This document shows positions 5,667 to 46,763 of a stretch of DNA of 64,000 nt, piece after piece (the first letter of the stretch is position 1; each line of letters begins with the position of its first letter). The position numbers were made by a program, and so were the translations under genes. Under the pieces are notes generated by a model that was not told where the DNA came from, made no database searches, and was given only the letters and a program-made list of their open reading frames with translations. This DNA comes from a virus. The stretch lies in the IMG/VR virus record IMGVR_UViG_3300010286_000195; one strand, given 5' to 3'.

Positions 5667-5684
5667 ATATTTTTGCTGATTACT

Positions 5685-6107
5685 ATGGTCAACGTTACTA
5701 TTAACAATGAAACATATGAACTGACTGATGAACCTTACCACGGCATTGTGCGTAAAGTTCGTAAGATGCAGAAAGCAATGCTTATTGATCTTCTATCCAG
5801 GTTCAAGGATGAACTTGACGATAGTATGAAAATTGAAGATGCTCTTGCTATGATTGCAAACAAGCATCCCGATGAAATTATTGAATATTCTGAGCGTGAG
5901 GAAGATTTCATCGTGATTGCTACGATTTCACTCGCTACAAATAAGATGTGGACGATAGAGGACTTTGACACTGTTCCTATTGGGGAAATGGATAAGATTT
6001 TCCAACAGTGTAAGGATGTTCTTGGTGGCGATGTGAACCGTTTTTTCAGAGGTTACGCGACGAATACACAGGAAGCGCCGAAGGAACTCAAGTTGAAGAA
6101 GAAGTAG
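5685..6107 (+). CDS. tail assembly chaperone (G-like)
   Basis: Lies between tail tube and tape measure genes; carries slippery heptamer T TTT TTC at 6041-6047. Confidence 0.7.
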   Translation: MVNVTINNETYELTDEPYHGIVRKVRKMQKAMLIDLLSRFKDELDDSMKIEDALAMIANKHPDEIIEYSEREEDFIVIATISLATNKMWTIEDFDTVPIGEMDKIFQQCKDVLGGDVNRFFRGYATNTQEAPKELKLKKK

Positions 6108-6415
6108 GACAACTTTCTTTTTCAAATAATAAAGTAGCAGAAGTGCGTAAGAAACTCAAGGGACGTAAATATTTACGCAATCTTCTAGAAGAAGATACCT
6201 ATTACAAGAAAATAGCACGATGGAAACATGCATTGCGTAATGGGTCTGACGATGAAGATTTTGCAGACTTTGTATTAATTGATGCTTTTGGTTGGTCATG
6301 GGATGATATAAACAATATTCCAGAACAAAAGTATCTTGCTATTTCTAAAATATTGTCCTTAAAGAATGCTGAAGAAGCAAAGCAGATTAAACGGCAGAAG
6401 CAGAAGAAAAGGTGA
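6044..6415 (+). CDS. tail assembly chaperone -1 frame extension (GT-like C-terminus)
   Basis: Hand translation shows the -1 frame open from the slippery site to TGA 6415 (FQRLRDEYTGSAEG...VRKKLKG...). Confidence 0.7.
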   Translation, partial: FQRLRDEYTGSAEGTQVEEEVGQLSFSNNKVAEVRKKLKGRKYLRNLLEEDTYYKKIARWKHALRNGSDDEDFADFVLIDAFGWSWDDINNIPEQKYLAISKILSLKNAEEAKQIKRQKQKKR

Positions 6416-11546: not shown

Positions 11547-14429
11547 ATGTATATTGGAGATATTTATATTCCGTATGTATCGGAATTTTCAATAAATAAA
11601 ACCACCAAAGATAGTAAAGAAACTAACTTCATCTCTGGCGATGCTGATCTTGATGAGACTGCACCGAAACTGAAAGAACTTACTATAGCGGGTGTTGCAG
11701 CAGCATATGGAAATAAAACTTCTGATGATTATGCTGATGATCTTGAAGCAGCATTGATTCGTAATTCTGCCTACAATATTGTCGAATATAATAATAAGAA
11801 GGGTTACTTTGTCCTTACTGATATCGATATACCTGACACAGTAGAGAATCAAAATGCGCGTGAGTTTACTGGAACAGGTAAATTCCTTCCTGCTGCTCGC
11901 TATGAGTGTTCTTATCGTGTAGAGACTGATTATGTTGATAGTGATTTTGCAATACAGTTTCCCCCAATCATTGCCCTTCCTACAGGTGCAACCAATGTAA
12001 GAATCAAATCACCCTGGGAAATTATGTTCATTGATGAATGGCATGGAACTGTGGGCAATGATGGTAAGATATCTATATTTAAACCGTTTCCTATTTTTGA
12101 TGCTGATAATTATGCTATAACATCTACAGGCACTAAAACGTTTATGGAGTCTGCCTACGGATGTTTTGTAACAGTCCTTGATGCACAGAATGAGAAAACA
12201 GAATGGACTACAACAGTAGGAACAGACTTACCTAAAGGACGTTACAAGATTGTATTCCGCTTACAGGATTTAAATGTTGCTGATGATATATCCGTGACCG
12301 TAACGGGCAATAAAAGTGGTGAATTAATTAATGAAATATTCACAACAGGTAAAACTACATGGACTACCATTGAGACTTCAGAATTTGAGGTTATAACACA
12401 TGAAACGTTGTCTGTTTCCATAAAGAAGGTAAAAGCAACAACAAATACAATCAAAGTAAACTACGGATTCATTCTTCCTACCTATACTGCAAAGGTAGTA
12501 TTTGAGAATGATACTGAAGTAGATTGTGGTAATGTCAAGGTGTTTGATACCAATGGTTCTACAAATGAATCTGATTGGAAACAAGTGTTTAATTACAACC
12601 ATGACTTCTCTACGGGTATAGTTATTCAAAACTCATTCTTCCGTTGGCATGTGGATACAAATGAGATTTGGAATAATACAGGTGAGTTAACCAATCTCAT
12701 CAATAATCAGGTAGGAAGATTATATCCACGTGCATTTAAAAATAATAATGTCAGTTACATTGTAAAGGAGATTCGTCCTGATCTGGTTGAAATTGAGTTT
12801 TCTCTATTCAATGGTGAATCAGATGCAAATGCAGAAGATTGTAGGGAGATAGTTCTTGTCCGGTTTACACCTCTCTATGTTACGTTTGAATTAATCCGCA
12901 ATGGAACATTCAAGTGGGATTGGCATATTGATTTCAGCACTATGCCATCCTGGAAGGCGATTAGTGCGCCTTCTAACTTAATGGTAACATCATCGTTAGC
13001 AAACACTGAACATACAAGTGAGAATGGTATCTTTACAGTAATATTTGATGAGTGTATTGCAGGTGTTTGTAAGTCTAAAAACAGTAGTGCATTAGTGCTT
13101 GGTGAAGGTGGTTTGTATGTAAACAATACTGCTGAATCGGGCAACTTTATGTTTACACTCTTTATGATTTCTGGTTCACTTGGTTCACAGTATATATTTC
13201 AGAATACAACTGACGCGCAAGTAACAAACGTGCAAAAGAATAGAATTTATGATGATTTCTCGATAGATTCATCAAGTGAATATATTGTAGAAAATGGTAG
13301 TAATTTTACTGAAACTTATGGCAATGGATTGCGAATACAAAGCGATAGTGATACGATTGTTACAAAGAAATTAAAGAATTTAAAATTGGGAACTGGAAGA
13401 TATAAAATAAATTGCACAAATGTATCAATGAAACCAGTAACACGCGAAGTTGGTATAATCATTGCTAGTGATCCAAATTATGATAATACATATTATGTGT
13501 GTTGTGTTGAGTATGATAAAACGCAACCCACAGGTGGCGACAAAACTAAATTAAAATTGTTAAAATTTAAAAGAAATCAAGGCAGTCAAGGAACATATGG
13601 AACCAATGGTTATGGTAAATATGGTTATGGTGCTGATGGGAGTGAAGTTGTTGCAGCAGTAGCAAATATTAATATGAGTATAGGTTGTGTTATTGAATGT
13701 GATTATAACAAAGAACAACGTAAATTTGAAATATATTGTTATAAAATGACAGAAGAACGTCCATCTAAGCCTCAGATAATTTATGTTGGCGATGAAACAT
13801 TTGATTATGGTAATGTTGGTTTGTTTACTCGTGTATCTGAAGCAGGTGTTGGTAATCTTGATACTATTTTCTGGGAATTAGAAGTATCTGATTCAATGAT
13901 CTATGAAAATGTAGGTTATCCATTTACTGTAATTACAAGCCCATCACATGGTGGAGTAATGGGCATACAAGCCATTGATATTTTTAATGGTAAAATTGGT
14001 CAAGATATCGATGTTGGACGTTATAATTTAGTTGTTCAAACAATCTCAACAAAACCTGTAACTGCGTTATATTTAAATTATGTTAACACTACGAAAGGTA
14101 AAACACTTGCTATTAATTCTGTTACACAGAATGAAGAAATAGGTGGTGATGCAATATTAACAACATATAACCGCATTATTGAGTTTAAAGAATCTGATGT
14201 TGGTGATAATGCACGTATTTTCATTGAAAAATTTGTTAATACATATATTGGTATAAACTTGGTTACTTACGCTGCACTTATTCCAATTTCAAATACAGAA
14301 GGTAGTGAAATTATAACACCAACAAATCTTTCCTTTGCATCGTTTAATGAACAAAACTATTACAGAAATCTTGAACCTAAAGAATTTGGTTCAAATCTGT
14401 TGAATAGAAAATATAAATCATACAGGTGA
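11547..14429 (+). CDS. tail tip/adsorption protein 1
   Basis: 960 aa, beta-rich; paralogous to 15186..19691 over its N- and C-terminal regions; one DDFS-initiated lectin-like module. Confidence 0.6.
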   Translation: MYIGDIYIPYVSEFSINKTTKDSKETNFISGDADLDETAPKLKELTIAGVAAAYGNKTSDDYADDLEAALIRNSAYNIVEYNNKKGYFVLTDIDIPDTVENQNAREFTGTGKFLPAARYECSYRVETDYVDSDFAIQFPPIIALPTGATNVRIKSPWEIMFIDEWHGTVGNDGKISIFKPFPIFDADNYAITSTGTKTFMESAYGCFVTVLDAQNEKTEWTTTVGTDLPKGRYKIVFRLQDLNVADDISVTVTGNKSGELINEIFTTGKTTWTTIETSEFEVITHETLSVSIKKVKATTNTIKVNYGFILPTYTAKVVFENDTEVDCGNVKVFDTNGSTNESDWKQVFNYNHDFSTGIVIQNSFFRWHVDTNEIWNNTGELTNLINNQVGRLYPRAFKNNNVSYIVKEIRPDLVEIEFSLFNGESDANAEDCREIVLVRFTPLYVTFELIRNGTFKWDWHIDFSTMPSWKAISAPSNLMVTSSLANTEHTSENGIFTVIFDECIAGVCKSKNSSALVLGEGGLYVNNTAESGNFMFTLFMISGSLGSQYIFQNTTDAQVTNVQKNRIYDDFSIDSSSEYIVENGSNFTETYGNGLRIQSDSDTIVTKKLKNLKLGTGRYKINCTNVSMKPVTREVGIIIASDPNYDNTYYVCCVEYDKTQPTGGDKTKLKLLKFKRNQGSQGTYGTNGYGKYGYGADGSEVVAAVANINMSIGCVIECDYNKEQRKFEIYCYKMTEERPSKPQIIYVGDETFDYGNVGLFTRVSEAGVGNLDTIFWELEVSDSMIYENVGYPFTVITSPSHGGVMGIQAIDIFNGKIGQDIDVGRYNLVVQTISTKPVTALYLNYVNTTKGKTLAINSVTQNEEIGGDAILTTYNRIIEFKESDVGDNARIFIEKFVNTYIGINLVTYAALIPISNTEGSEIITPTNLSFASFNEQNYYRNLEPKEFGSNLLNRKYKSYR

Positions 14430-14435
14430 TTAAAC

Positions 14436-15053
14436 ATGGCAAATACTTATACTCCGAAATTAAATTTAGCAAAACCGGCACATGGTGATGTTAATTGGCA
14501 CATTCCAGTTAATGAAAATTGGGATAAGATTGATACTGAATTAGATAAAGCATTAAAAATAAGTGGGACGACGATTGACGCGGATAAAAACTGGAACGGG
14601 AAAAGTATCACGAATGTGAACCAAATACAAGCCGCCTCCGCGAATATAACCGAAATAACAACGTCGAGATATTCACTGCTTCCGGACAGCACCCTTTGTT
14701 ATGCCGACAATACAGAAGTATCGCGGGAAGGGGGCACCCCCACCATAGTCAAAACGGCCCCTCCGGTGCCCGCCGGGAGGTATGGGACAGTCACGGTTTA
14801 TTTCAACCTAAAAACGACCCAATCCGCGTCCAGGTATGCCGCACACCTCCAAATCCATAAAAATGGCGTATCGGTGTATTCCACCAGAACAGACTCGTAT
14901 TATTATGTCGATTACGCAACAAATATCAACGTGGCTCCAGGGGATGTTTTGGCGTTAGCACTCTTTGCTGAACCCTACGTTACCGCGACGAACACCCGAT
15001 TTGAAATTCATGCGATCACGTTGCCGGGAATTATAAATTCACTTAGATGGTAG
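14436..15053 (+). CDS. short tail fibre-like protein
   Basis: N-terminal TPKLNLAKP...NENWDKID motif is typical of fibre anchors; C-terminal half is visibly more GC-rich. Confidence 0.6.
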   Translation: MANTYTPKLNLAKPAHGDVNWHIPVNENWDKIDTELDKALKISGTTIDADKNWNGKSITNVNQIQAASANITEITTSRYSLLPDSTLCYADNTEVSREGGTPTIVKTAPPVPAGRYGTVTVYFNLKTTQSASRYAAHLQIHKNGVSVYSTRTDSYYYVDYATNINVAPGDVLALALFAEPYVTATNTRFEIHAITLPGIINSLRW

Positions 15054-15185
15054 GGGGACAGACATGGTAGCAGGAGCAGGTATGCATATGATCGTATGCA
15101 TAACCCCGGCACCATGCTCTCCCAAAAATATAATTACTTAATATAAATTATAATTCATCTAAAAACAATAAAAAGGTGATATAAC

Positions 15186-18100
15186 ATATATATAGGTGAT
15201 ATTTATTTACCTATTCTTTCCAAAATTGATAAGAAATCTGTCTCGAAAATAACCAAAGAAATTGCAGGTATTAACGCTAAAGAATCGAGAACTGTTTCTA
15301 TTCGTAGGAATCTGCAACCGATTACTCTTGAAGGTTATCTTTACAATGATGGTGAAAAGGATGATGCACAATACGCAGAAGATGTAGAAGCATTACAGTA
15401 TCGTTCTGCTGGATATTGCTACACGAAATATGCAGACTTAGATGGTTTCATTGAGATTGAAAATGCTGAGGCACCACAAACGTCAGAGGAGTTAGGTGTA
15501 AGGAATTATACAGTGGAAGGAAAGTATCTTCCTGCGAGCAAATATGAGCGTGTAGTGGAAGTGGAAACAGAAATGCGTGGGAATGAATTTAATATAGTGT
15601 TTCCTCCGCATGTTGCTCTTCCTGTGGGGGCTACAAATGTTAGAGTCAAGACTTCGCAGGATAGTGTGAAATTATCTGCACCTGCATTTATGGCAGGAGA
15701 TATACCGATTTATAGACCGTTCCCTGCATTCTATCCTGATGATGTTACACATTCAGCAGGTGATACTCCGAAGTATGATACTACAGCGTATAAGATGTCT
15801 TACAACTTACTTAGTGCAAAGGATGAATCTATTTCTTACACGTTTGTATCGGGTGTGGATGTCCCTCTTGGTTCTTACTGTGTTGTCCTACGCATGAAGA
15901 GTGATGCTACAATCGCATCAGACGCACGTATCGTTGTTTTAAGCGGGGATAATGTTGTAGTTGATAGTTTACATACCCTCGTAGGTGATAATGTCTGGAA
16001 CATAGTAAAATCTGCATCCTTTAATATTACACAGAGAGGTATAACCTACACTATTAAGGTTTCTAAGGTAGAAGCGGATGTTGCCAACCTTGCAGTCAAC
16101 TATGGATTCCTCCTACCTGAAAAGAGAGCGCGTGTTGCATTTGATGTAGCGGCAGAGTATGATGTAGGCGAGTGTAAGGTATTTGATACTATTACTACGG
16201 ATTCTGAAGAGTCTACATGGATACAGGTATTCAATCCTGAGCATGATTTTGCAGGTGACATTGTTGTTCAAAACTCTATGTTCCGGTGGGTAATCAAACA
16301 AACTGCCTGGAAGGATGCAACTAAGGTTTACAACATCTCTGGTAGTGCTCCTGTTGAAATTGGTAAACTGTATAATAAGGCATTTGGTGATGATTCGGTT
16401 GCAATCAAGTTTAAGGAGATTAAACCTAATTACCTGAAATTCACTTTCGAGTTAGACACAGGTAATGCAACATCAGAGTCTACAAGTGCAAAAGAGATTG
16501 ATACTGTTGAGATTACACCATTCAATGTTGTAATTGACAAGGATGTAATTGGTGCTTACAAGGATCATTATACATTCGAGTCTACACCCGATGTAATGAT
16601 AGAATATGAGAATGGTGTCATTGCAGGTATTGACTCAAATAGTATCTACGGTTTGATTAAGTCTGTTAATGTTACGAGCAGTTATGATGGAGATATTATT
16701 GAAACAACGGGTAATGAATCGAGTGATTCTTATGTAGTGCCTTTTGTCATTCCATGTGAAATTACATCTTACTTGTATAAACAGGCAGCAGATTTAGTTA
16801 TTAGCAAGGACAACGGCGATGTCGAGCGCAAGTTCTTCAAGGATGATTTCAGTGTTGATTCCAGCGACAACTATACTGGACACGATGAAACTTCCAAAGG
16901 TTTCTATACATGGGATACTGCAAATAGCAAGTTGGTTTGGCAGGTTACATCAATATCTTCTAATCAGGCTAATATCTACAATCCAATAACGGCAGGACAA
17001 TATGGAATTTCTTCAGTATCGTTTAAGTGTACGGATTACGACGAAACATATGTGCAGACTATCGGTTTGATCGTAGCAAAACGGGGCGATGTTTATGTAG
17101 GAGCCGTTATTCGTCGTGATACTGACGGCAGGAACAGATTCGTGATATTCATGGGCAGTTGGGAGGTACGTGGAGACACTGGATTAACCATCGGAGTTGA
17201 CGTTTTCGATGGTGCGACGTATACCATCACTGTTGAAACAACCCCAACAGGAATTAATGGAAAGGTCTATCGAGAAGGCGTGTATGTGAGAGGATACACT
17301 GTTCCATACGCCGAGTTTAGAATGTATACCCCGCCCACACCCGATGAATTTGTGATCGGATTCGGTTCTCAGATAGGGGCTGCAAAAAATATTACTTGTG
17401 AGGTTTACGACCTGTCGTTTAAACCAACCATATCTTACGCCGACGACTTCTCCACCGATACCACCGAGCGGTATCAGGCAGTTACCGGCACTGTCACGTA
17501 TGACGATACCAACAAGCGGATGAACGTCACCACAGCGACAGGAGCGAATGGAAAAGCATCCGGCAGGTTGAAGTCCTACAAGTTCTGTGAAGGCGCACAA
17601 CAATTTGATGTAACGCTCCCTGTCGGCGCAGACGGGGATTTCATCTGCTTGGTCACTCATGCTACCGATCCTGCAATGACAAATGGTATTGGTGTAGGAT
17701 TACAGTCTGATGGTGCGGGGAACTGGAACCTCGCAACCTTATCTGGAACTACGGTTACTGAAGGGGCACCAAGCGGGTTGACTGATGGCAAGACTGCACG
17801 CATTGAGATTGAGAAGGACAACACAGGAGCGTATTGGTATTATATCTATGATGCTGCTGGACCCAAACCGACAACGGCAACGGGGAAACTCTTCACCACG
17901 TTATCAGAGGGTTACACCGGATGGTATGCTAACGGTAACAGCAAGACCTATGCAATTGAAAATATCTCCATTCGCGCTGAATCCATCGTTGGACGGACGA
18001 ATGTCGAGGTGACCGAGCCGTTCTGGTTCAGGGATGAGTTTGGAGAGGATTCGATTGGTCGCATATCTCGGGCTGGATACAATGGAGTTGGATCTGCATA

Positions 18101-19691
18101 TTCTGTGACATCTGGAAAATTGGTTCAGTCAAATGTAGGTATCCGGTCTATAATTGGTGTAATTTCTCCCAAATTAACTGGAGAGACAACATTCAAACTT
18201 AGTGCTGCTGGGACAGATACCGACACCGATAATGAAACCATTATAGGGATATCTGTCAGTGATTCGAAGTCTAACTATACAGATGACAATGTAATTATAG
18301 TGGGCGTTGCAGCAGCCGGGGACACAACGAAATACAATAAAATTTATGCTCGATGTGGAGATTTAACCTCCTCAACAGAAATTGCATATACGTATACTGC
18401 CGGTGTTCAGACAGAATTAAAGATAGTGTATGCTCCATCTACGGGAACCTTCACCATCTATGATTCGTCGGATGTGTTAATCGGCACTCTCCAACATGCA
18501 AACTACATCAAGACGGGTAGTTATTATGCCGGTGTTGGAGCATGTGCGAACATGACTGCAACGCTCTGCGCCGAATGGGATTATGTGGAAATCTCCGGCA
18601 CCCGAGTCTACAATAAACCCATCCACCGAGGAGCAATGCTTGAGACATATCACGATGGGACACAGGAGGTTGTAGGGACTACGTTTATTGATGATTTTAA
18701 CTGGGATAGAAGTGCCGAAGTCATTGTAGGTAAGGGAACGTATACGTGGGATACTATTAATGGTAAAATAACCTGTGCTACCTGTTCTGGTGATTATTCT
18801 GGATTGAGATTTGGTAATTTGCAGTTTGGCGATCAGTTTGCAGAAATCATAGTTACACCCACTGTTGATAAAACTGCATTTTATGTATTTAATTGGGACG
18901 GGTCATATGATTCAACCACAATACCTAACTTGATTGATAATTGTTACTACATAACACTTGTTGGCTCGTCTGGAGCACCCTCGTTTGAAATTAAAAAGCG
19001 CGTTGCTGGTGTAACTTATACATTGTCAGCAAATCCGGTCGCATATACCGCCACAAACCCGCATGTCATAAAACTACTGAAAGTTGGTTCGACAATTACC
19101 GCATCGCTTTATACACTCGATGGAGTATTGATAAAAACGGTAACGGTAACAGATTCTACATTTTCGGTAGGATATGTTGGACTTGGAACCTGGAGTACAG
19201 GTTCGAGTTTCCACAGTGTAAGAGTCATTGGTCTTGAATCGACCAGCACCAACGGAATTGTTGCCTGCATCCCGCCAATAGGGGGCGGGGCGAGATATGG
19301 GGTAGAAGAATCTGTTTACAACACTTTCACTACTGAAAATGTAAACAAAGGTGTATACCTCACTACTGCAAGGGTAAAAACAACTAATCCAAATGCAGAT
19401 GAAGTATCGCTTGAATATACCAATGATACTACTTCCATTACACTAAACACTACTCCCATTGATGTAGATGCAACTTACACTGTTAAAACTGCACCAATTA
19501 CCATTGATGCAAATGAAACTGATACCTTACGTGTAAGTGTGAAAAATTCTACTGCTTGTGTTCAATCTACAAACTATGTAGAGTCTCTTTCCCTGATTCC
19601 CGTTTCAGGTGATGATGTGTTATACCCACAGGATTTAGCATTTATCAGTGGTGTAAAACCGTCACAGAAGCGTAAGGTGGAGGTGAAATAA
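15186..19691 (+). CDS. tail adsorption protein 2 (about 1501 aa, apparent ATA start)
   Basis: Frame is open from 15180, after in-frame TGA 15177-15179. ATA-TAT-ATA-GGT-GAT-ATT-TAT aligns with the MYIGDIY start of paralog 11547. AGGTGAT lies 5 nt upstream. Four D[DE]F-initiated modules. Confidence 0.7.
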   Translation: MYIGDIYLPILSKIDKKSVSKITKEIAGINAKESRTVSIRRNLQPITLEGYLYNDGEKDDAQYAEDVEALQYRSAGYCYTKYADLDGFIEIENAEAPQTSEELGVRNYTVEGKYLPASKYERVVEVETEMRGNEFNIVFPPHVALPVGATNVRVKTSQDSVKLSAPAFMAGDIPIYRPFPAFYPDDVTHSAGDTPKYDTTAYKMSYNLLSAKDESISYTFVSGVDVPLGSYCVVLRMKSDATIASDARIVVLSGDNVVVDSLHTLVGDNVWNIVKSASFNITQRGITYTIKVSKVEADVANLAVNYGFLLPEKRARVAFDVAAEYDVGECKVFDTITTDSEESTWIQVFNPEHDFAGDIVVQNSMFRWVIKQTAWKDATKVYNISGSAPVEIGKLYNKAFGDDSVAIKFKEIKPNYLKFTFELDTGNATSESTSAKEIDTVEITPFNVVIDKDVIGAYKDHYTFESTPDVMIEYENGVIAGIDSNSIYGLIKSVNVTSSYDGDIIETTGNESSDSYVVPFVIPCEITSYLYKQAADLVISKDNGDVERKFFKDDFSVDSSDNYTGHDETSKGFYTWDTANSKLVWQVTSISSNQANIYNPITAGQYGISSVSFKCTDYDETYVQTIGLIVAKRGDVYVGAVIRRDTDGRNRFVIFMGSWEVRGDTGLTIGVDVFDGATYTITVETTPTGINGKVYREGVYVRGYTVPYAEFRMYTPPTPDEFVIGFGSQIGAAKNITCEVYDLSFKPTISYADDFSTDTTERYQAVTGTVTYDDTNKRMNVTTATGANGKASGRLKSYKFCEGAQQFDVTLPVGADGDFICLVTHATDPAMTNGIGVGLQSDGAGNWNLATLSGTTVTEGAPSGLTDGKTARIEIEKDNTGAYWYYIYDAAGPKPTTATGKLFTTLSEGYTGWYANGNSKTYAIENISIRAESIVGRTNVEVTEPFWFRDEFGEDSIGRISRAGYNGVGSAYSVTSGKLVQSNVGIRSIIGVISPKLTGETTFKLSAAGTDTDTDNETIIGISVSDSKSNYTDDNVIIVGVAAAGDTTKYNKIYARCGDLTSSTEIAYTYTAGVQTELKIVYAPSTGTFTIYDSSDVLIGTLQHANYIKTGSYYAGVGACANMTATLCAEWDYVEISGTRVYNKPIHRGAMLETYHDGTQEVVGTTFIDDFNWDRSAEVIVGKGTYTWDTINGKITCATCSGDYSGLRFGNLQFGDQFAEIIVTPTVDKTAFYVFNWDGSYDSTTIPNLIDNCYYITLVGSSGAPSFEIKKRVAGVTYTLSANPVAYTATNPHVIKLLKVGSTITASLYTLDGVLIKTVTVTDSTFSVGYVGLGTWSTGSSFHSVRVIGLESTSTNGIVACIPPIGGGARYGVEESVYNTFTTENVNKGVYLTTARVKTTNPNADEVSLEYTNDTTSITLNTTPIDVDATYTVKTAPITIDANETDTLRVSVKNSTACVQSTNYVESLSLIPVSGDDVLYPQDLAFISGVKPSQKRKVEVK

Positions 19692-20321
19692 ATGTTACGT
19701 AAAATAGAATATCAAGGTGATTTTCCAGAAATGGAAAATCATATTCAATTTTCTGTAATAGAAGTTCAAACAAAAGAAGTAGTCATTGATGAGTTTACAG
19801 AACCCGAAGAGTATAATGTTGCATACCTCGATGTTGCTGAAACTTATCAGGCGATTGTTGATTACGAGACAATCATTTCCTACGATGAAGAGGGTAATGA
19901 AGTAGAGGTGCAGATTCCAATCTACGAAACATTCACAGTAGACATGGATTCATTCTCCCTTCCTGCTACATGGGATGAAATTCAGAATGTGTTACACTTT
20001 GATTTCAAGATTAAAGATAGACTCTATACCTTCTGTAACACTCCAGGAGCGATTAAAGTAGGATTACAAGATTCTATCATATGCAGAACCGTGTATGAAC
20101 CTGTTACAATCAATTATGGTGACAAGGGTAACATAACACAGAAACAGTCCTACATTAAGCGTTTTGAAATGCCTACTGTACCTCCACTTATGGTAGTCAA
20201 TGGTATGTTCACTTTACAGAATGATAGCAATGTGTTTATTGATCAATACACGAAAGAACAGATGACACTTGAAGATATTGAACTTTACCGTAATGGTGAA
20301 TATATTAAGAATTTTAGGTGA
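19692..20321 (+). CDS. hypothetical virion-associated protein
   Basis: 209 aa ORF with GAGGTGA RBS, translationally adjacent to the tail gene. Confidence 0.6.
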   Translation: MLRKIEYQGDFPEMENHIQFSVIEVQTKEVVIDEFTEPEEYNVAYLDVAETYQAIVDYETIISYDEEGNEVEVQIPIYETFTVDMDSFSLPATWDEIQNVLHFDFKIKDRLYTFCNTPGAIKVGLQDSIICRTVYEPVTINYGDKGNITQKQSYIKRFEMPTVPPLMVVNGMFTLQNDSNVFIDQYTKEQMTLEDIELYRNGEYIKNFR

Positions 20322-20327
20322 ATAAGA

Positions 20328-20684
20328 ATGAATGAATTTGGTAATGCGTATATAGAAAAGGTTTGGTGCAATTCTGTTAAGTCTCCTCGTCCATTGAAGG
20401 TGATTCCTTACAAGAAGGATTTTAAAGTATTCTTCAGTGTGAGGGGAACAGAAATAGGTAGAATAACGATTGGTATATTTGTGGATGATATTCTGGATCA
20501 GATGCTTACCACGAATATTCTAGAGAAAAATAAGAGTCTTGCAATTTGGTTTTGGTATCCTTACAAGCGTAAGCAGATAGGTAAGCATGTAATCCAGTTC
20601 AAGATTGGTGAGGCAACCGATAGAACGGCAGATTCCGTTACGTGGAAATATACTTCTGATAAATATATAGTTGAGGTGAAATAA
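20328..20684 (+). CDS. hypothetical Ig-like protein
   Basis: 118 aa, beta-rich; AGGTGA RBS. Confidence 0.5.
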   Translation: MNEFGNAYIEKVWCNSVKSPRPLKVIPYKKDFKVFFSVRGTEIGRITIGIFVDDILDQMLTTNILEKNKSLAIWFWYPYKRKQIGKHVIQFKIGEATDRTADSVTWKYTSDKYIVEVK

Positions 20685-20685
20685 T

Positions 20686-20943
20686 ATGGATAGTGTATTA
20701 CAATTTATTTTAAACGCTGATGTTCTTTTTTTCCTCTTCTCTACTCTTCTTACAATTGGAGTAGGTTATTTTGTGGGGAAGGGTTTTTCCTTCAAAGAGA
20801 TTCAAGACATAATTGATGTAGCCAAGGAAAGTTATGAGGATGGGTATATTGACCCTGATGAAGCACGATTGATTTACAAGGAGATTGAAGATGTAATTGG
20901 TAAGGATTGGTTTATTCGTCTGATAAAACTAGTAAAGAGGTGA
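20686..20943 (+). CDS. holin-like small membrane protein
   Basis: N-terminal hydrophobic helix (VLFFLFSTLLTIGVGYFV) and basic C-terminus; end of the late operon. Confidence 0.45.
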   Translation: MDSVLQFILNADVLFFLFSTLLTIGVGYFVGKGFSFKEIQDIIDVAKESYEDGYIDPDEARLIYKEIEDVIGKDWFIRLIKLVKR

Positions 20944-20946
20944 CAC

Positions 20947-21501
20947 ATGAAGTTTGATTTTGAGAAGTTTAAATACTATTTTTTAACTCTACTTGCTACA
21001 CTATTTGGAACACAGCGAGTAAAACCGATTGAGATTGATATTTACATCGAGGACAACATTGATCCTGAATTTGTGAAGAATTCCCTCTACCTTATTCCTC
21101 AACTGTGGAAGTTCAACTTCCTTACCGAAGCACCTAAGTATCGTGTAATGACAGGAGATTGGAAAGGGTTTCTCATTCCTGAAGCGGATGATACTGTTGT
21201 AATCTTTGATGGTAAGTCCCGTAATGCTAAGTATGCGGGCGGTTGTATAGGAAAGAGTGTTGGTGTTGCAAAGAACACATGGGACACTGATGAACTTGCA
21301 TTTGGATTACGTATTTGGCATGAACTTCTCCATGCGCAGAAGATTGATTCCGATGCAATGTTACGTAGTCCAGAGTTTGAAGAATGGTTAGAATCACAGT
21401 TTAGTTACGTTTTAAAAGAGAATAAACCTGCATACGAACATTCAATGCAGTTTCAGATACTTTTCTATAACTTCCTTACGCGGAAATTTGTAAGAGGTTA
21501 A
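20947..21501 (+). CDS. zincin-type metallopeptidase
   Basis: HExxH motif (WHELLH). Confidence 0.6.
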   Translation: MKFDFEKFKYYFLTLLATLFGTQRVKPIEIDIYIEDNIDPEFVKNSLYLIPQLWKFNFLTEAPKYRVMTGDWKGFLIPEADDTVVIFDGKSRNAKYAGGCIGKSVGVAKNTWDTDELAFGLRIWHELLHAQKIDSDAMLRSPEFEEWLESQFSYVLKENKPAYEHSMQFQILFYNFLTRKFVRG

Positions 21502-21504
21502 ATC

Positions 21505-21517
21505 CTCTTACCTTTTT
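21505..21517 (+). terminator. oligo-T terminator motif CTCTTACCTTTTT
   Basis: Lies directly after stop 21501; the same 13-mer follows stop 50214 (50217-50229). Confidence 0.5.
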
Positions 21518-21518
21518 T

Positions 21519-21655
21519 AAATCTCTTCAATTCTTTGAGTAAAACAGCATTATTTTGGCATGTTGTTTTGAAGAGGTATATTTACCTGTCTGAGAAAAGA
21601 TAGGGTGCTAAACTCTATAGTTTTGATAGTAAAAAAGGGTAATAATTTGATTCTA
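21519..21655 (-). repeat. dispersed three-block repeat, copy A
   Basis: AATCAAA..CCTATCT..GTTTTACTCAAAGAATTGAAGAGATT blocks on the - strand. Confidence 0.75.
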
Positions 21656-21886
21656 GTATACTATTACACGACCACAAGAATCAAGAGTAAACCCAAGTTC
21701 ATGGTTGATATTAGAGCATGTTATAATCTTACCTGTTTTTTTATCGATGAATAAGATATTACCGCACCATATAGGTTCACCTTTTTCATCAACAAGTTCA
21801 AGGGCAACAGTTTTCTTACCATCCTTGAGGTTGAAGTAAACATTCTCACACTTCTCTTTTTCTGTGTAAATACCTTCAACTGCCAT
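21653..21886 (-). CDS. hypothetical protein, triplicated family copy 3
   Basis: Shares G[IV]Y-E, [KN]KTG and GF-LD--GRV motifs with both neighbours. Confidence 0.75.
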   Translation of the reverse strand: MAVEGIYTEKEKCENVYFNLKDGKKTVALELVDEKGEPIWCGNILFIDKKTGKIITCSNINHELGFTLDSCGRVIVY

Positions 21887-22126
21887 TTACACCACTTTTA
21901 CTCTACCCTTTTCATCAAGTTCAAAACCAATCATGTTGTTTACATCTGGTTCTCTTTTAATCTCACCTGTTTTATTATTAATTGTGCAGATGAAAGGTGC
22001 ATTAATATCAACACCATTTTTATTGACAATTTTGATAATTACTTCATCATCATTCCACTCTTCAAGTTTAAAGTAAAGTCTCTCTTCACTCTTTACTTTC
22101 TCATTATAAACTCCAACAACACCCAT
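21887..22126 (-). CDS. hypothetical protein, triplicated family copy 2
   Basis: Same motifs as above; stop and start codons abut. Confidence 0.75.
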   Translation of the reverse strand: MGVVGVYNEKVKSEERLYFKLEEWNDDEVIIKIVNKNGVDINAPFICTINNKTGEIKREPDVNNMIGFELDEKGRVKVV

Positions 22127-22366
22127 TTATACTACCTTTACTCTTCCCCATAAATCAAGATCAAAACCAATTTTTTCAGAAACACTGTCAAAACGAGTAA
22201 CTACACCTGTTTTCTTACTGATCATAAATATAATTGCAATTTCCTTCCCATCCTGATTGACAACACTAAGAACAACATTGTCACCACAATCAGTCAATTT
22301 AAAGAAGTATTTTTCCTCTTCCTTAATCTTCTCAGCGTTATAAACGCCACAAACCTTGTAACTCAT
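22127..22366 (-). CDS. hypothetical protein, triplicated family copy 1
   Basis: Same motifs as above; TATA-like TTTTTATATAA about 50 nt upstream. Confidence 0.75.
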   Translation of the reverse strand: MSYKVCGVYNAEKIKEEEKYFFKLTDCGDNVVLSVVNQDGKEIAIIFMISKKTGVVTRFDSVSEKIGFDLDLWGRVKVV

Positions 22367-22461
22367 CTTTCTTACACCAAACCTATGTTGTATACAATTA
22401 GTTTTACGGTGTTATATAAAAAGGTTTTGAAATTGATTCAACCTACACTATTGTGCAAAAC

Positions 22462-23058
22462 TTATTCTGGATGATAATAACGATATAGGTAATAGCGCAA
22501 AGTATTTTCAACATTGAAACAAACGCTGTCAATAGAACCGTTTGCATCCAGAATAAAGTAACGATGTTTTCCTTCTTTTGCAAGTTTTATATAATTATCC
22601 TGAATCTTTTGTAATCGCTGTATTTCTTCTGTCATATTGTTTATCTTACGCCGTTTAGCATTACGCATAGCGAACACAGTAGGATTACCGTAAAGGAAGA
22701 TAGTAATGTTAGGGAAAAGTGTGTTTCCATCAAAGAAGCGCATAATCTCATCGGGATCACGTTCAAGGATTACTCCATAACGCGCAATGATTTCATCCAG
22801 GTAGGAATCGGTAATCACAACCTTACCCTCTTCAAGAGCAGGTGTGATAAATGAATCAATATGGTCATAATGATCGAGTAGCGTAAAAAGTAACTGTTTC
22901 TCAGGGTTATCCTTATGTTTTTCAATCAATTCACGCATATCTTCAGCGTAAGGTTCACTAGTGTAAACAATATCTTCAAAATCAGTTAAGTTTTCCTGTA
23001 AATAGTTGAGGACAGTGGTTTTTCCACTTCCCTCAACACCTTCAATACTAATAATCAT
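22462..23058 (-). CDS. tmk: thymidylate kinase
   Basis: ISIEGVEGSGKTT P-loop, TSEP motif, VVITDSY motif. Confidence 0.85.
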   Translation of the reverse strand: MIISIEGVEGSGKTTVLNYLQENLTDFEDIVYTSEPYAEDMRELIEKHKDNPEKQLLFTLLDHYDHIDSFITPALEEGKVVITDSYLDEIIARYGVILERDPDEIMRFFDGNTLFPNITIFLYGNPTVFAMRNAKRRKINNMTEEIQRLQKIQDNYIKLAKEGKHRYFILDANGSIDSVCFNVENTLRYYLYRYYHPE

Positions 23059-23069
23059 GTTTTATCACC

Positions 23070-23714
23070 TCATAAAAAGTTGAGTGCTTCTAATGTATCT
23101 TTAGGGAGTTTAATCTTTAGTGCATTATTCTTGTAATCAGTAATCAAATCAGAAAGTTTAGGATACGCTTCTAGCAACTTCTGTGCGCGTTTATCACCTA
23201 CTCCAGGTAAGGACAGATAAATATCATAGAGTGGATTTGCACTTGACTTGACTTTCTTGTGCTTGACACTCTCTACTTTCTTACCCTTTCCTACCATTTC
23301 CTTGATTTTGAAAATGGCATGGTATAGTTGAGGTGCGGTATCAAACTGAATCATCTTTACATTATACCTTGCTGCTACAGAACAGAGGGAACCAACCGTA
23401 TGTGTAGTTTTCCATTGTTTAGCGTAAGGGACATAATAAAGACTCTTGAAATTACCGTGTATGAAAAGATACGGTTCATCATATTGTTCAAGGTTAATAA
23501 GTTGAGTTTCCAATCTTCCGTCGCGCACAGAATTGATAAAGTCTGCTACAGATTTACGCTCAATGACAATCTTCTTCTCTCCATCAATAACCCAAGCGTA
23601 ATCACCTGATTCCAAATATTCAAAACGGACTTCGACATTATACGTTTTTGCAATGCGAGCAATCTTATTTTGAACAGTTTTGGGTTCTCTTGTATCTACA
23701 ATTAAGTATTCTAT
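23070..23714 (-). CDS. ERCC4/XPF-family structure-specific nuclease with HhH domain (apparent ATA start)
   Basis: GDY, IERKSVADF and LPGVGDKRA motifs. The conserved IVDTREP lies upstream of the listed TTG start; in-frame TAG-TAA bounds the ORF just upstream. Confidence 0.85.
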   Translation of the reverse strand: MEYLIVDTREPKTVQNKIARIAKTYNVEVRFEYLESGDYAWVIDGEKKIVIERKSVADFINSVRDGRLETQLINLEQYDEPYLFIHGNFKSLYYVPYAKQWKTTHTVGSLCSVAARYNVKMIQFDTAPQLYHAIFKIKEMVGKGKKVESVKHKKVKSSANPLYDIYLSLPGVGDKRAQKLLEAYPKLSDLITDYKNNALKIKLPKDTLEALNFL

Positions 23715-23718
23715 AATA

Positions 23719-24798
23719 TCACCTGTATATTTTTACTAAATGTCTATCTTTCGTGCCATACTCTCTTGTAAAGTCACAGTAACCAGATAGAGGACAATAC
23801 CCATACTGTTTGACAAGTTCACAACGCGGGAAAATAGGTTGGTTGTAAACATCAAATAGTCTATCAAGTTGTCGCTCCTCAACGATGCAATGATACGCTT
23901 CTGTGCGTCCATTGCGTGTGCTTACAAGATATTTCTCTAATATGTCCTTGATCTCACCGTAGAGGAAACCACTATCACGCAGATAGGTAATAAGCAAGTA
24001 GCGCCCTCTAAAACCTACTCGTTTTGTCATACTATTTATCAGTAAGGATGAAATGCATGGTGGAAGAGTTTTGAGTAGAGAATCATGCGAAATCTGCATA
24101 CGAATAGCATCATCATACTCTAATTTATAGTCCTGTGCATCGATTGAAGAGTAGCGATTGATGTAATATTTTCCACCCACATCAAACATTTCCATGTTCA
24201 GGCATTTGTTACCATAAACCGTGTAATCACATGGATGCGGTTGATGTGTGGCCTTACGCTGAATAAACTTCAATCCACGTTCAAGATCATCTGTTGTAAG
24301 AGGAATACAATACCTTCCACGGCGATTGTTGAAAGTTCCAGGGATGGTTGCAACACGCGCAACATCGCCCATAACCTTTTCATCCATCGTAGTCAACTTG
24401 AACTTCCTTACAAAAAATGAATGTGCGCTAAAGAGTGCTGCTTTCTTATTCTTCAATTCCGCGTAATTCTTAGTGAAGAGGTAGAAGTGGAATCCTGCAC
24501 CAGAATATAGCATCAGGTAGCGCATGTCACGCTTATCAAACTCATTTGAGAGTTTTACTGCTTCATCAAATGATTTCTCACCGTCAAGATCAAAGAATAT
24601 CTTATCTACGTTAAGAAATGCATCATCATACACCTCAGAGGACGTATAATTGTAAATGGTAGCAAATACACGCTTGTATGATTTATAGCGATTTATCTGC
24701 TCGTAAAATTCCTCAGAAGTATTTGTTGTAATCCGGTAAGGAATTGCAATTTGACGCGGGAATGAATTGTAAAGCAACTTGTGAATAGTGACGCACAC
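23719..24798 (-). CDS. archaeo-eukaryotic primase, PriS catalytic domain fused to a PriL-CTD-like domain
   Basis: IFFDLD, YSGAGFH and RVATIPGT motifs; C-terminal LPPCI...GRYLL...C...C..C. Confidence 0.8.
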   Translation of the reverse strand: MCVTIHKLLYNSFPRQIAIPYRITTNTSEEFYEQINRYKSYKRVFATIYNYTSSEVYDDAFLNVDKIFFDLDGEKSFDEAVKLSNEFDKRDMRYLMLYSGAGFHFYLFTKNYAELKNKKAALFSAHSFFVRKFKLTTMDEKVMGDVARVATIPGTFNNRRGRYCIPLTTDDLERGLKFIQRKATHQPHPCDYTVYGNKCLNMEMFDVGGKYYINRYSSIDAQDYKLEYDDAIRMQISHDSLLKTLPPCISSLLINSMTKRVGFRGRYLLITYLRDSGFLYGEIKDILEKYLVSTRNGRTEAYHCIVEERQLDRLFDVYNQPIFPRCELVKQYGYCPLSGYCDFTREYGTKDRHLVKIYR

Positions 24799-24849
24799 AA
24801 TCTTCCACCACTATTCTATATGTAAAAAAGAGTTAATAAAGATTATTAT

Positions 24850-25536
24850 TTAGAGGAAGTCATCCTGCATTGTTTCATCGTAAATCATGTCACATATGTA
24901 AGCGTATTCACAATAGTTGCACAACCAGGACGGTTTAGCATCAAACTTCTTCGCTTCAATCTTCTTTACTGTATTGTCAAACTTACGCAGAACAGAACGA
25001 ATACGTTTCTCTTCCATATCCTCAATGAAAGAATCATTGGGACTTACCGTAAAAAAGATACCAACCTGATCAATCTTGATGTCTGTTGTTTTCTGCACTA
25101 GGTAGACATACAAGTGCAGTTCATCCAGGTAGTCTTTGTAATCACTTTCACGATACTTGCCCGTCTTATAATCAACTAGGATGTGCTTACCATCTTTTTC
25201 ATATATTGCATCGATGATTCCCACAAGATTTTTCTCTTCATCATACAATCTACGTTCAGCGTAAGTAGCGCGATCTAAACCAAACATGGAAAGAATGATA
25301 AAGAAATTATCAATGTGTGTCTTGTAGAAATCATCCTTCATTAAGAACTGTTTATAATATTCGAATTCAGGTGAGTTTTTGTTATATAATTCAAACAGTT
25401 CATGGAGAGTGCTACCTTTCTTTGCAGCCTCATTAGATACTTTGTCCTCACCATAAATCGTGTAATTCTCGATGTAGAACTTACGAGGACACTTACGGTA
25501 AAGATTCATCTTACTCTTACTCATGCGGAACTTCAA
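24850..25536 (-). CDS. Cas4-like PD-(D/E)XK exonuclease
   Basis: CPRK, GSTLH, GIIDAI, LVDYKTG and CNYCEYAYIC (four-Cys Fe-S arrangement). Confidence 0.85.
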   Translation of the reverse strand: MKFRMSKSKMNLYRKCPRKFYIENYTIYGEDKVSNEAAKKGSTLHELFELYNKNSPEFEYYKQFLMKDDFYKTHIDNFFIILSMFGLDRATYAERRLYDEEKNLVGIIDAIYEKDGKHILVDYKTGKYRESDYKDYLDELHLYVYLVQKTTDIKIDQVGIFFTVSPNDSFIEDMEEKRIRSVLRKFDNTVKKIEAKKFDAKPSWLCNYCEYAYICDMIYDETMQDDFL

Positions 25537-25766
25537 ATCCTTACCTCCTTACCGCTCATCCATGCCTGTAACCAACCACGCTCTGACCAATAACGACACA
25601 TATCGACAAATGTGTAAGTCTTGTTCTCATACTCTATCTTACGAGGAATTTTCTTACCATTGACGAAATCAAAGAATGCTACTTTCATAACCAATTCAAA
25701 AGATTCAACGGTAATCCATCGTTCTTTTTGCATTGTTTCTTTATAGTAATAATGTGCAACTGACAT
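25533..25766 (-). CDS. hypothetical protein
   Basis: ORF in operon; overlaps the next gene's start. Confidence 0.5.
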   Translation of the reverse strand: MSVAHYYYKETMQKERWITVESFELVMKVAFFDFVNGKKIPRKIEYENKTYTFVDMCRYWSERGWLQAWMSGKEVRI

Positions 25767-26107
25767 CTAGTCCATCTCCGAAGTAATACAGTAATCTGAA
25801 TATGTTTTTCTCACTATTATGCGCCTTAAAAATGATTTAAGGATAGAAATGAAATGCATGATCTTACAGTTCAACCTCACACTCTTTTTGATAATATTTG
25901 TGTTTCCAATTATATTTTTCTGCATTTTTAATCAACCTCTATTTCTTTCAGTAACCCATATATTAAAAACGATACAAGAACTATAATCCCTTGAATTGTA
26001 TCATAATTAAATATGTAATCAGTAACAAATAAACCAAACACGAAACATACAATTAATCTAAGCAACCAATTATATTCTTTAATAAATAAATTAAATGTCA
26101 ATTATAA

Positions 26108-26311
26108 TCACCAACATCCATAGTCTGTAAGATTAATACATTCACCACAATATTCACATTCTGCCATTGTATCAAATCCAATGCCTGTTGTAGTAATATG
26201 TAAGTGAACTGTTAATTCATACTTATTTTCATCAAAACATCGCTCATGACGCTGAATGAATTGATTGAGTTGTACAAGTTCATTCTTGTTAAGTTCTAAC
26301 ATTATCCACAC
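26108..26311 (-). CDS. hypothetical protein with CxxC
   Basis: ORF directly downstream of the RNR gene; CEYC motif. Confidence 0.5.
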   Translation of the reverse strand: MWIMLELNKNELVQLNQFIQRHERCFDENKYELTVHLHITTTGIGFDTMAECEYCGECINLTDYGCW

Positions 26312-29300
26312 CTACTGTATCCACAGGCACACGTAACACAACCTTCAACCATACTCATGCGTTCACCACATTCAGGGCAGATGTTATATTCAGTTGTTAC
26401 TTTCATTTTACGCGAAATAGGTGTTGGTTCTGACTCCTTATCAGGAATCAGACTTTCAATTACTCGCCCGACAACATCAGAGCATGACTTTCCATCACAT
26501 TTACCTTCAGTGAATTTCTTGTAGGCCACAGGACAAGTAACATTACGTAGAGTCTTGATTATATCCCAAGTGGGAACATTCCAACGCATAGAGAGAGAAA
26601 TCATCTGACCAAGTGCATCATTCATAGCGGTGCAACCACCTTTGTTGTTTATAATACACTCATACGGCTTGCCATCCTTCTCTGCAACAGAGATGATTAG
26701 TTTACCACAACCACTACGACGCTTACTGTTGGTTGCAGGAAGATCAGCATCACGCTTTGGTAGGATTCTACCGTTAGTAGGTGTAGGGGTAGATGTTGAT
26801 TCTTTCTTGAGTTCCATAACAATATCATTTCTGCTACCTGTTACGTAAATGGTAACACCCTTACACTTTTTCTCATGAGCGTAAAGAATTGCATTTCTAA
26901 TGTCATCTTTAGTAGCACTTGAAGGCATATTGATAGTCTTACTGATAGCAGCATGACAATACTGCTGAAACGCTGCCTGCATGTCAATGTGTGCCTTCCA
27001 ATCAATGTCTAGTGCAGTTTTGAACACAGATTTAAATTCAGTAGGCAACCATGTAATATCCTGAATAGTTCCTGTTTCGTAAGCGTGATTAATTACTTCC
27101 TGCTTTTTCTTATCCCACTGTGAAAATTCATAATGAGTTTCAATATACTCATCCAACTTTTCTTCAAAGACCGGATCAACTATTAGGTATCCTTTCTTTT
27201 CGCCATCTACCCATGTGTAACGCTTATGCACTAGGGAATATACAGGTTCAATACCATATGAGGTTTCAGAGAGTGTTGCAATACTTCCAGTGGGTGCTAT
27301 GCACGTTGTAGTAGCATTACGCATTGGAATATCTTGTAGGAACCATTGAGAACCCTCATAAGCGGGGAATGTGCCAAGTTCTTTTGCAAGTTTACGTGAA
27401 GTAGCGACAGAGAATTCATCAAGAATACTCATGACTAATTTTGCCTGATACAATGCATAAGAACTATCGTAAGGAATACCCATCTTCATAAGCATGTGAT
27501 GGAATCCCATGTAACCTAATCCAATCTTACGAGTCTTTCTACTCGCGCCTGCAATCTCTTCAATAGGATATTTATTGAGATCAATAATTTTATCGAGAAA
27601 TTCAGTTGCCTGTTCAATAGTATTAATCAATCTTGGGGTATCAAGTTTATTATTATCAATAAAGTTAGATAAATTTATACTGCCTAGATTACAAGACTCT
27701 CCTGGTAGTAGTGGTTGCTCTCCGCAATTCGAGGCTATTACGCCGTTGAAAATGCCAGTGTGATTCTTAGGTTCGTTGAAACAGTAAACCTTGTCTACAA
27801 TTTCATTATTTTTTGTAATTGAAACAACACTAATAAATCTTTTTGCACTTCTATTGCAATTAACATCAATAGGAACTCTATGCGTTTTGAGTCCAAGTTC
27901 TTTAAGTTTTGCTACATCGGATGCAGCAATCACAATTCTATATGATTCAAGACATTCATACTCTTTTTGACCGCCATTTCCATCAGGCATTAATTTTGAA
28001 CCTGCTAAACGCATAATATTAACAGATGTATTAATTCCAAGTGTGTTAAGCATATATTTTATCTTCATCAGGAAGTCTTTATCAACCGATGAAATAGTAA
28101 TACTGCCTTCACTTGAATTTCTACTTCCATCACTATCAATGATACCTGCTAACCAATCTAATCTTGATCTGATTGTGTATTCACAACCAGGAACAAATAC
28201 TTTGTCATAATCACCATCAAGGATAGCCAAAATTCTTCTATCACTATTTGGATTAATATATACTTTTTTTGCCTTTATATACTTTAAAAGTTCTTTCTTA
28301 CCATCATATAACCAAATCTGATATTGATTACTTGCTGTATGATAACAACCATCACCACTGTAAAAGCCATGTGTATAAGCATTCTCAAGTTCTTTAATAC
28401 CCTCAATAACAGGGTAATCACACTTGATAAGTTTGTCACCCACAACTAAATCTTTTGCCTCTTTTTTAACAATCTTACATCCATTACTTTTGTAACAATC
28501 TTGTAAGATAAACTTATGATAAGGAGTGCATTTTACTTTATTACCATCGCTAAATGTTACTTCCATTACCTCTTGATTAAAACCAGTAACGCAAGGTGTA
28601 ACAACACTCCACTCAAACCCATTCCAAATAGTAGTTTCCTTTCCTACGCACTCATCAATGCGCTTATATCCTTCATTGGTAAGAACCAATGTATCACCTG
28701 TAACACAGGGATTGGTTGCTTCAATATTACCAAGATGTTTGCAAGTATTATCATCATTAATTGTATTGTAAAACAGAATCCCAGGCTCACCATTGAGCAT
28801 TATTCCTTCAATAATCTTATCAAATAATTCTTTTGCTCTGACTGTTTTGTAAATCTTGCCCTCAAAGTGAAGGTTATATTCTTTATCATTTTTTACTGCA
28901 TTAATAAAATCATCATCAATCATTACAGAGATGTTAAAGTTAGAAAGATCACCTTCAGTATTCTTACATGTAATGAACTTCTCAATGTCAGGATGCCATA
29001 TTGGAAGAATACCCATATTGGCACCTCTTCTTCTTCCACCTTGTTTTACTGCTTCAGTAGCAGCATTAAATACTTTCATGAAAGAAATAGGGCCGGATGC
29101 AACACCATCTGTTCCATTTACTCTATCACCTTCAGGTCGAAGATTACCAAAAGAAAAACCTGTGCCTCCACCCGTCTTATGAATCAATGCAGCATTTTTA
29201 ATTGTAGTAAAAATACTTTCCATAGAATCATAGATTGGCAGAACAAAACATGCAGAAAGTTGTCCTAAATTAGTTCCCGCATTCATAAGGGTAGGCGAAT

Positions 29301-29469
29301 TAGGCACAAAATCCTTATTCACCATCATGTCGTAATAGATTTCCCTCTCATCATCCGTATTTCCTACGTAGTCTGCAACTCTTCTACAAACATCTTCCCA
29401 GGATGATTCTCCTTCACGGAAATAACGAGCAGCAAGAACTTCATTAACAATCTCACTCATAGTAATCAC
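26302..29469 (-). CDS. nrdJ: class II (B12-dependent) ribonucleotide reductase, intein-interrupted
   Basis: PNSPTLMNAG, LSACFV, GGGTG, NPC/GEQPL, IAPTGS motifs; C-terminal TSCPD-like domain and zinc ribbon. Confidence 0.92.
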   Translation of the reverse strand: MITMSEIVNEVLAARYFREGESSWEDVCRRVADYVGNTDDEREIYYDMMVNKDFVPNSPTLMNAGTNLGQLSACFVLPIYDSMESIFTTIKNAALIHKTGGGTGFSFGNLRPEGDRVNGTDGVASGPISFMKVFNAATEAVKQGGRRRGANMGILPIWHPDIEKFITCKNTEGDLSNFNISVMIDDDFINAVKNDKEYNLHFEGKIYKTVRAKELFDKIIEGIMLNGEPGILFYNTINDDNTCKHLGNIEATNPCVTGDTLVLTNEGYKRIDECVGKETTIWNGFEWSVVTPCVTGFNQEVMEVTFSDGNKVKCTPYHKFILQDCYKSNGCKIVKKEAKDLVVGDKLIKCDYPVIEGIKELENAYTHGFYSGDGCYHTASNQYQIWLYDGKKELLKYIKAKKVYINPNSDRRILAILDGDYDKVFVPGCEYTIRSRLDWLAGIIDSDGSRNSSEGSITISSVDKDFLMKIKYMLNTLGINTSVNIMRLAGSKLMPDGNGGQKEYECLESYRIVIAASDVAKLKELGLKTHRVPIDVNCNRSAKRFISVVSITKNNEIVDKVYCFNEPKNHTGIFNGVIASNCGEQPLLPGESCNLGSINLSNFIDNNKLDTPRLINTIEQATEFLDKIIDLNKYPIEEIAGASRKTRKIGLGYMGFHHMLMKMGIPYDSSYALYQAKLVMSILDEFSVATSRKLAKELGTFPAYEGSQWFLQDIPMRNATTTCIAPTGSIATLSETSYGIEPVYSLVHKRYTWVDGEKKGYLIVDPVFEEKLDEYIETHYEFSQWDKKKQEVINHAYETGTIQDITWLPTEFKSVFKTALDIDWKAHIDMQAAFQQYCHAAISKTINMPSSATKDDIRNAILYAHEKKCKGVTIYVTGSRNDIVMELKKESTSTPTPTNGRILPKRDADLPATNSKRRSGCGKLIISVAEKDGKPYECIINNKGGCTAMNDALGQMISLSMRWNVPTWDIIKTLRNVTCPVAYKKFTEGKCDGKSCSDVVGRVIESLIPDKESEPTPISRKMKVTTEYNICPECGERMSMVEGCVTCACGYSRCG
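27727..28707 (-). mobile_element. intein (327 aa) with LAGLIDADG homing endonuclease
   Basis: Splits NP|CGEQ; starts CVTGDTLV and ends GVIASN before Cys; contains HGFYSGDG and LAGIIDSDG blocks. Confidence 0.92.
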
Positions 29470-29819
29470 CTGAACAATGTTTCGTAAGTGTAATCCTTTG
29501 CATCAAAGTAATCAGCACAGAACTCTGCTGTTTTCATGTCATCAAAATCCTTACACGAAAATACATCAATGTAGCAACAATCAGTCTGCTCACTGAAGTG
29601 TGCCGTAATACAAGACGTTTCAATCAGTTGCATTACAGAGTAACCGTAAAGATGAGGTTCAGTTCCAAAGCGTTCTGCAATCATATCTCCATGACGTTTC
29701 ATTTCAATATAATTGCACAGATCAATCATCCACGCCTTGATATACTCAATGTCACAAATCTTTTCATGGTTGCAACCAAAAAGGTTAATGTGAACCGATA
29801 AACCAAAATCACCCATCAT
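29466..29819 (-). CDS. S-adenosylmethionine decarboxylase family proenzyme
   Basis: H-NLFGC, GYSVMQLIETSCITAH and YIDVFSCK motifs. Confidence 0.75.
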   Translation of the reverse strand: MMGDFGLSVHINLFGCNHEKICDIEYIKAWMIDLCNYIEMKRHGDMIAERFGTEPHLYGYSVMQLIETSCITAHFSEQTDCCYIDVFSCKDFDDMKTAEFCADYFDAKDYTYETLFR

Positions 29820-46623: not shown

Positions 46624-46763
46624 GTAAGGCACCTCGAAAAATAGTTAATAAAGATAGATAGTATAATATCTAAAAATACTACTATTTAAATGTTTCGTAA
46701 AAAAGTGAAAAAAAGTTTAAAAAAGTGTAAGAATAATGAGAAAAAATTAAAAAAAATATTAAA

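Follow-up and report, generated by a model that had tools for sequence, protein, structure and literature searches.

Does the largest tail gene of this virus begin at an ATA codon, and if so, is that codon an evolved start, a recent change of an ordinary ATG, or an error confined to one assembly? The window considered here is a stretch of 64,000 nt from an IMG/VR virus record with a length of 64,745 bases, of which it covers all but a small part. In its list of open reading frames the tail gene is called from a GTG at 15513. The initial annotation proposed that translation begins 109 codons earlier, at an AUA that might lower the copy number of the protein relative to its paralog, or else that an ATG had recently become ATA.

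The start region of the tail gene

Read in order on the plus strand, the region consists of a Shine-Dalgarno-like (SD) motif, AGGTGAT (15174-15180), five further nucleotides (ATAAC), and then ATA TAT ATA GGT GAT ATT TAT from 15186, which places an ATA at the start-codon position (15186..15188). The tail frame is closed upstream by the TGA at 15177-15179, inside AGGTGAT itself. The stop-to-stop frame (15180..19691) holds 111 codons ahead of its first ATG, GTG or TTG, which is the GTG at 15513..15515 (plus strand); counted from the ATA, the distance is 109 codons. Begun at 15186, the ORF (15186..19691, plus strand) has 1501 codons plus a stop and encodes a protein that is conserved over its first 560 aa or so and mosaic in its C-terminal modules; begun at the GTG, it gives the gene-caller product P0010, a truncated 1392 aa. 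The initial annotation had described the open frame, the absence of any canonical in-frame start before 15513 and the AGGTGAT five nucleotides upstream, in the geometry of AGGTGAT-TAAAC-ATG at 14436, and all of this can be read directly from the sequence. Its claim that the added codons are homologous to the N-terminus of the paralog also holds. The paralog (11547..14429, plus strand; 960 aa) has a canonical ATG and likewise begins MYIGDIY, and BLASTP aligns the two (IYIGDIY/MYIGDIY, 31% identity over about 590 aa, E 3e-80) from exactly the ATA codon, opposite M1 of the paralog. This position is beyond chance, since the ATG of every orthologue sits exactly there.

The motif and its spacing are those of many genes in this genome. 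AGGTGAT recurs with like spacing at 20328 and 22462 (minus strand) as well as at 14436, and the majority of window genes have an ATG behind a GGTGA-type leader, about 2-5 nt separating AGGTGAN from the start. A scan of gene starts in the window for GGTGA followed by a near-cognate codon returned only 15186 and 23714 (minus strand). The tail gene has both sequence features by which an evolved AUA start would be recognised: a conserved N-terminus without a canonical start upstream and a normally spaced SD. The same leader also affects the ORF list, in which several "GTG" starts lie inside a GGTGA leader (1047, 6412, and, on the minus strand, 26302-29469, 34909-35424, 37899-38690 and 46138-46632). 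For these the true start is likely an ATG 9 to 12 nt downstream, and ATG usage in the genome is therefore above what the list suggests.

The functional reading frame

Codons 2-109 are under purifying selection in comparison with all relatives (pN/pS 0.08-0.2), and many of the N-terminal 109 residues are invariant, among them M1, Y2, I3, G4, I6, Y7 and P9. The GTG at 15513 is not conserved: its codon is Ile in four of seven orthologues (NYSIEGKY), and its AGGTG lies 14 nt upstream, compared with about 2-5 nt in the well-led genes of this genome. With the 109 codons conserved and the GTG not, the functional gene is the full-length 1501-aa frame; the GTG is probably not the real start, and the 1392-aa product is probably an artefact of gene calling. 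The same observations bear on one account of the ATA, in which the change is real and the virus makes only the N-terminally lacking 1392-aa protein from GTG 15513, or none at all (a null allele, in a variant that is defective or restricted in host range). GTG 15513 is indeed the first canonical in-frame start, and the paralog could cover the loss of the large tail protein. This account nevertheless has to contend with a GTG that is neither properly led nor conserved, and with the loss of 109 residues so constrained that a truncated product is unlikely to assemble; we regard it as improbable.

Coupling to, or frameshifting from, the upstream gene was considered and rejected: that gene ends at 15053, 133 nt away, and the nearby frames are all closed. 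The tail frame is shut upstream by TAA 15144-46 and TGA 15177-79, and the out-of-frame GTGs at 15176 and 15196 meet stops at once or within about 20 codons. The intergenic region has a structure of its own. A strong GC-rich hairpin (15053-15122) stands directly 3' of the stop of the 205-aa gene (fold of 15050-15215: -48.8 kcal/mol, z -5.6 versus shuffles), and an AT-rich, TATA-like stretch (15125-15170) lies between it and the tail-gene SD. Together they may provide a site of termination or processing and, in addition, an internal promoter; the region is only partly common to relatives.

Identity and architecture of the tail protein

The gene order is tape-measure gene (PF10145), 349-aa gene, 960-aa paralog, 205-aa gene and large tail gene. 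The orthologues (P0003-P0009) have residues 1 to about 560 in common, and the last 130 or so as well where the ORF is complete, with shuffled modules between. Placement in the tail module after the tape measure and a modular, variable C-terminus are thus both found, and they fit a tail fibre or receptor-binding protein, of which we infer the "receptor-binding" part. Siphovirus-type tail fibres and receptor-binding proteins are likewise encoded in a late operon downstream of the tape measure and combine a conserved N-terminus with a mosaic C-terminus; here a shorter paralog has the same N-terminal part. Unlike known siphovirus families of this kind, the protein had no family match in sequence searches of Pfam, PHROG and PDB. 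Atlas gave weak leads only (Dit-like and CBM clusters scoring <0.9), and AlphaFold2, run on residues 1-560 with an 11-row alignment, produced a poor model (mean pLDDT 45.8; below 50 for residues 1-204).

Other assemblies of the strain end or branch at 16724-16812 and at 13066, the conserved-to-variable transitions of the two paralogous tail genes, which suggests that co-occurring strains shuffle their C-terminal modules as cassettes. Elsewhere in the tail region, the tape-measure gene is directly preceded by an open frame that lacks a start codon (6014..6415) and itself comes after an ORF at 5673..6107, a layout typical of a frameshifted pair of tail assembly chaperones.

Base 15188 in other assemblies of the strain

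The truncated call P0010 shares its 90% cluster with P0011, which is the same protein at 1501 aa with M1. Across window positions 13066-29691 (16,626 bases), the contig of P0011 (ENA ERZ27245372, k141_39336, 51,398 b) departs from the window at one base only, 15188, where it has G and the window has A. The same G is found in a second assembly, ENA ERZ795095, whose contig NODE_2151 is identical over 8.4 kb apart from this base and a 2-nt gap 36 nt from the contig end, the sole other difference. In both assemblies the AGGTGAT-ATAAC leader is identical to that of the window and is followed by ATG. Logan contigs of SRR6179393 match the window at 100% identity over four stretches; they break between 14598 and 16750, so their coverage lies on either side of the site. 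Pooled, the remaining assemblies of the strain account for 38,624 bases of the window and show no substitution apart from the one at 15188. The window contig is the longest and least fragmented assembly of the strain. The two contigs on which P0010 is recorded are probably a single scaffold that appears in two JGI collections; the ATA allele is seen in one assembly only. As far as these assemblies go, 15188 is a private G-to-A change at the third position of a family-wide ATG, in a genome otherwise identical to copies that carry the canonical codon. A stronger SD as compensation for the ATA was considered and dropped: the ATG copies of the same strain have the same leader.

The start codon in related viruses

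If AUA were an evolved start that holds the large tail protein below the copy number of its paralog, relatives should keep the codon. They do not. Seven orthologous proteins (83-97% identity) start MYIGDIY or MYIGEIY, and six related loci read ATG TAT ATA GGT GA at the aligned codon. A scan of IMG/VR and a metagenome collection with the pattern ATNTATATAGGTGAYATTTATTTACC, which ATA, ATT and ATC alleles would match too, found 5 and 33 stretches, and all 38 have ATG (some are one contig present in two collections, and the window's own record is excluded); four further contigs also have ATG. A blastn search with 14400-16400 against GenBank phages gave no match. The initial annotation had suggested comparing related genomes at the start codon and had itself named an ATG there as evidence against its proposal; the comparison was run, and ATG is what the relatives show. 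An evolved AUA start that reduces copy number is thus refuted. Its alternative, a recent ATG>ATA change, is supported by the ATG of the two same-strain assemblies, which comes after an identical AGGTGAT-ATAAC leader.

Two points speak for an evolved start, namely the optimal SD geometry and the fact that the lineage keeps a conserved ATA start on another gene, the ERCC4-type nuclease gene described below. They are outweighed by the ATG in relatives and in both same-strain assemblies, and by a leader that offers no compensation. From this comparison the ATA is neither a lineage feature nor an evolved unusual start, and we find the idea of a start tuned to limit the large tail protein hardly credible.

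A conserved ATA start in the ERCC4 nuclease gene

The second near-cognate start of the window tells a different story. The ERCC4-type nuclease gene starts on the minus strand (window 23700-23732, ATA 23714-23712), where TAG TAA is followed by AAA TAT ACA GGT GAT ATT ATA GAA TAC TTA ATT GTA GAT ACA AGA GAA, and the frame reaches the catalytic IVDTRE motif without any ATG, GTG or TTG. AGGTGAT-NNN-ATA (23714) is invariant in 15 related loci with 10 distinct sequences (the window, L007, L009-L019, L024 and L025), while the codon that precedes the ATA varies (ATT, AAC, ACC). Over the 33 codons that precede the first canonical start, pN/pS is 0.25. Homologues at 47-55% identity have M or V in place of the ATA, and members of the family begin M-x-K-I-I-V-D-x-R-E. 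The truncated 181-aa call of this gene represents 275 member sequences.

This start suggests that the host ribosome uses AUA. The AGGTGAT of the gene contains the TGA stop of the upstream 359-aa gene, and termination-reinitiation after that TGA is an alternative to plain SD-led initiation at AUA. Near-cognate starts of the evolved kind are familiar: E. coli infC and pcnB have AUU starts, and NCBI table 11 lists ATA, ATT and ATC as initiators. Like infC, pcnB and ERCC4, the tail gene combines a strong SD at normal spacing with a conserved N-terminus that has no canonical start upstream, and gene callers truncate it as they do the others. Unlike it, the evolved cases keep the codon across relatives: ATA is found in 15/15 ERCC4 loci, whereas the tail gene has ATG elsewhere. 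The ERCC4 start does not turn the tail-gene ATA into an evolved feature.

Host and other genome features

The GGTGA-type leaders, PolB and an RFC-like clamp loader are consistent with an archaeal host. A provirus was sought with the tail protein in genome contigs and none was found. In the same kind of search, the 491-aa product of 44660-46135 (minus strand), the presumed large terminase, matched only a 1.3-kb contig in a Cloacimonadota MAG bin; this match was not taken as evidence for the host. No tRNA genes were found in the window. The gene for the ribonucleotide reductase large subunit (26302-29469, minus strand; 13237-16395 in L019) contains an intein bearing a LAGLIDADG homing endonuclease, a call that rests on precomputed Pfam hits for a same-strain contig.

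Recent variant or consensus error

Two readings of a private base have to be weighed. On the first, the change at 15188 is a real, very recent variant of the strain in the sampled population, and not an evolved AUA start; on the second, the A is an artefact of sequencing or assembly, or reflects a minor allele, the true virus has ATG, and the gene is ordinary. An error would agree with the two same-strain assemblies that read G while all else is alike over 38.6 kb. The ERZ795095 contigs have only about 6x coverage, so the virus can be present at low depth, where single errors survive. Errors are also unfiltered by selection, and landing in a start codon costs them nothing; furthermore, the site was chosen for looking anomalous, which enriches for accidents. 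In the same direction, losing the start of a conserved structural gene would be expected to harm the virus, and a real variant at high frequency is to that extent less likely beforehand.

Against an error stands the quality of the contig itself, which is otherwise error-free in comparison with three other datasets. It is also the most contiguous assembly of the strain, a weak argument against thin local coverage and to that extent in favour of a real variant. Were this the sole error, the random chance of its landing in any start codon would be roughly 0.3%. A real variant is further favoured by the rarity of substitution errors in short-read consensus sequences, by a contig otherwise flawless over 38.6 kb and by the ease with which ATG>ATA SNPs appear at start codons. 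On balance we lean towards a real, very recent variant; an error is a distinct possibility that we place short of even.

A real variant of this kind would have precedents. In E. coli O104:H4 a spontaneous ATG>ATA SNP in rpoS lowered RpoS up to 5-fold compared with wild type (PMC12864459), and in a laboratory strain of Halobacterium (H. salinarum) an ATG>ATA SNP arose in nadA (10.1101/2024.08.08.607208). As in the tail gene, each is a single G-to-A change at the third base of a conserved ATG that leaves the ribosome-binding site intact and is confined to one isolate or assembly; in the case of rpoS the protein was lowered, not abolished. Unlike these two, the tail-gene allele is known from one metagenome assembly alone and affects a viral structural gene.

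Initiation at AUA if the variant is real

Should the change be genuine, weak initiation at AUA on the ATA copy is plausible. Ribosomes would still load on the intact AGGTGAT leader, and the initiator tRNA would pair with AUA with a third-base mismatch, giving the full-length 1501-aa protein at a small fraction of the normal amount. Variant virions would then contain little or no large tail protein and would rely on the 960-aa paralog. The size of the expected effect can be gauged from other systems: in E. coli reporters AUA supports about 1-2% (0.02-3%) of the expression from AUG (10.1101/063800), and near-cognate codons make up about 30% of the putative alternative initiation sites in Haloferax volcanii (PMC7261190). 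Leaky use of AUA by the tail gene is plausible in this virus because ERCC4 of the same clade has a conserved SD-ATA start. A stronger version, in which the ATA allele is real, the system accepts SD-led AUA starts and the full-length protein is made from AUA at a usable level, strikes us as rather unlikely.

Implications

For annotation, the tail gene is best given as the full 1501-codon frame, with ATA as its start in this record and ATG in the strain's other assemblies. More generally, an odd start codon seen in a single assembly counts for little as evidence of unusual initiation before the same strain and related genomes have been compared, and an ATG>ATA change or error is an ordinary event. 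Of more interest as a lead is the ERCC4 nuclease gene of this clade, whose SD-ATA start is conserved. Should full-length tail protein nonetheless be made from AUA at a usable level, one-letter start-codon variants would act as a natural dial for the share of two paralogous tail proteins in each virion.
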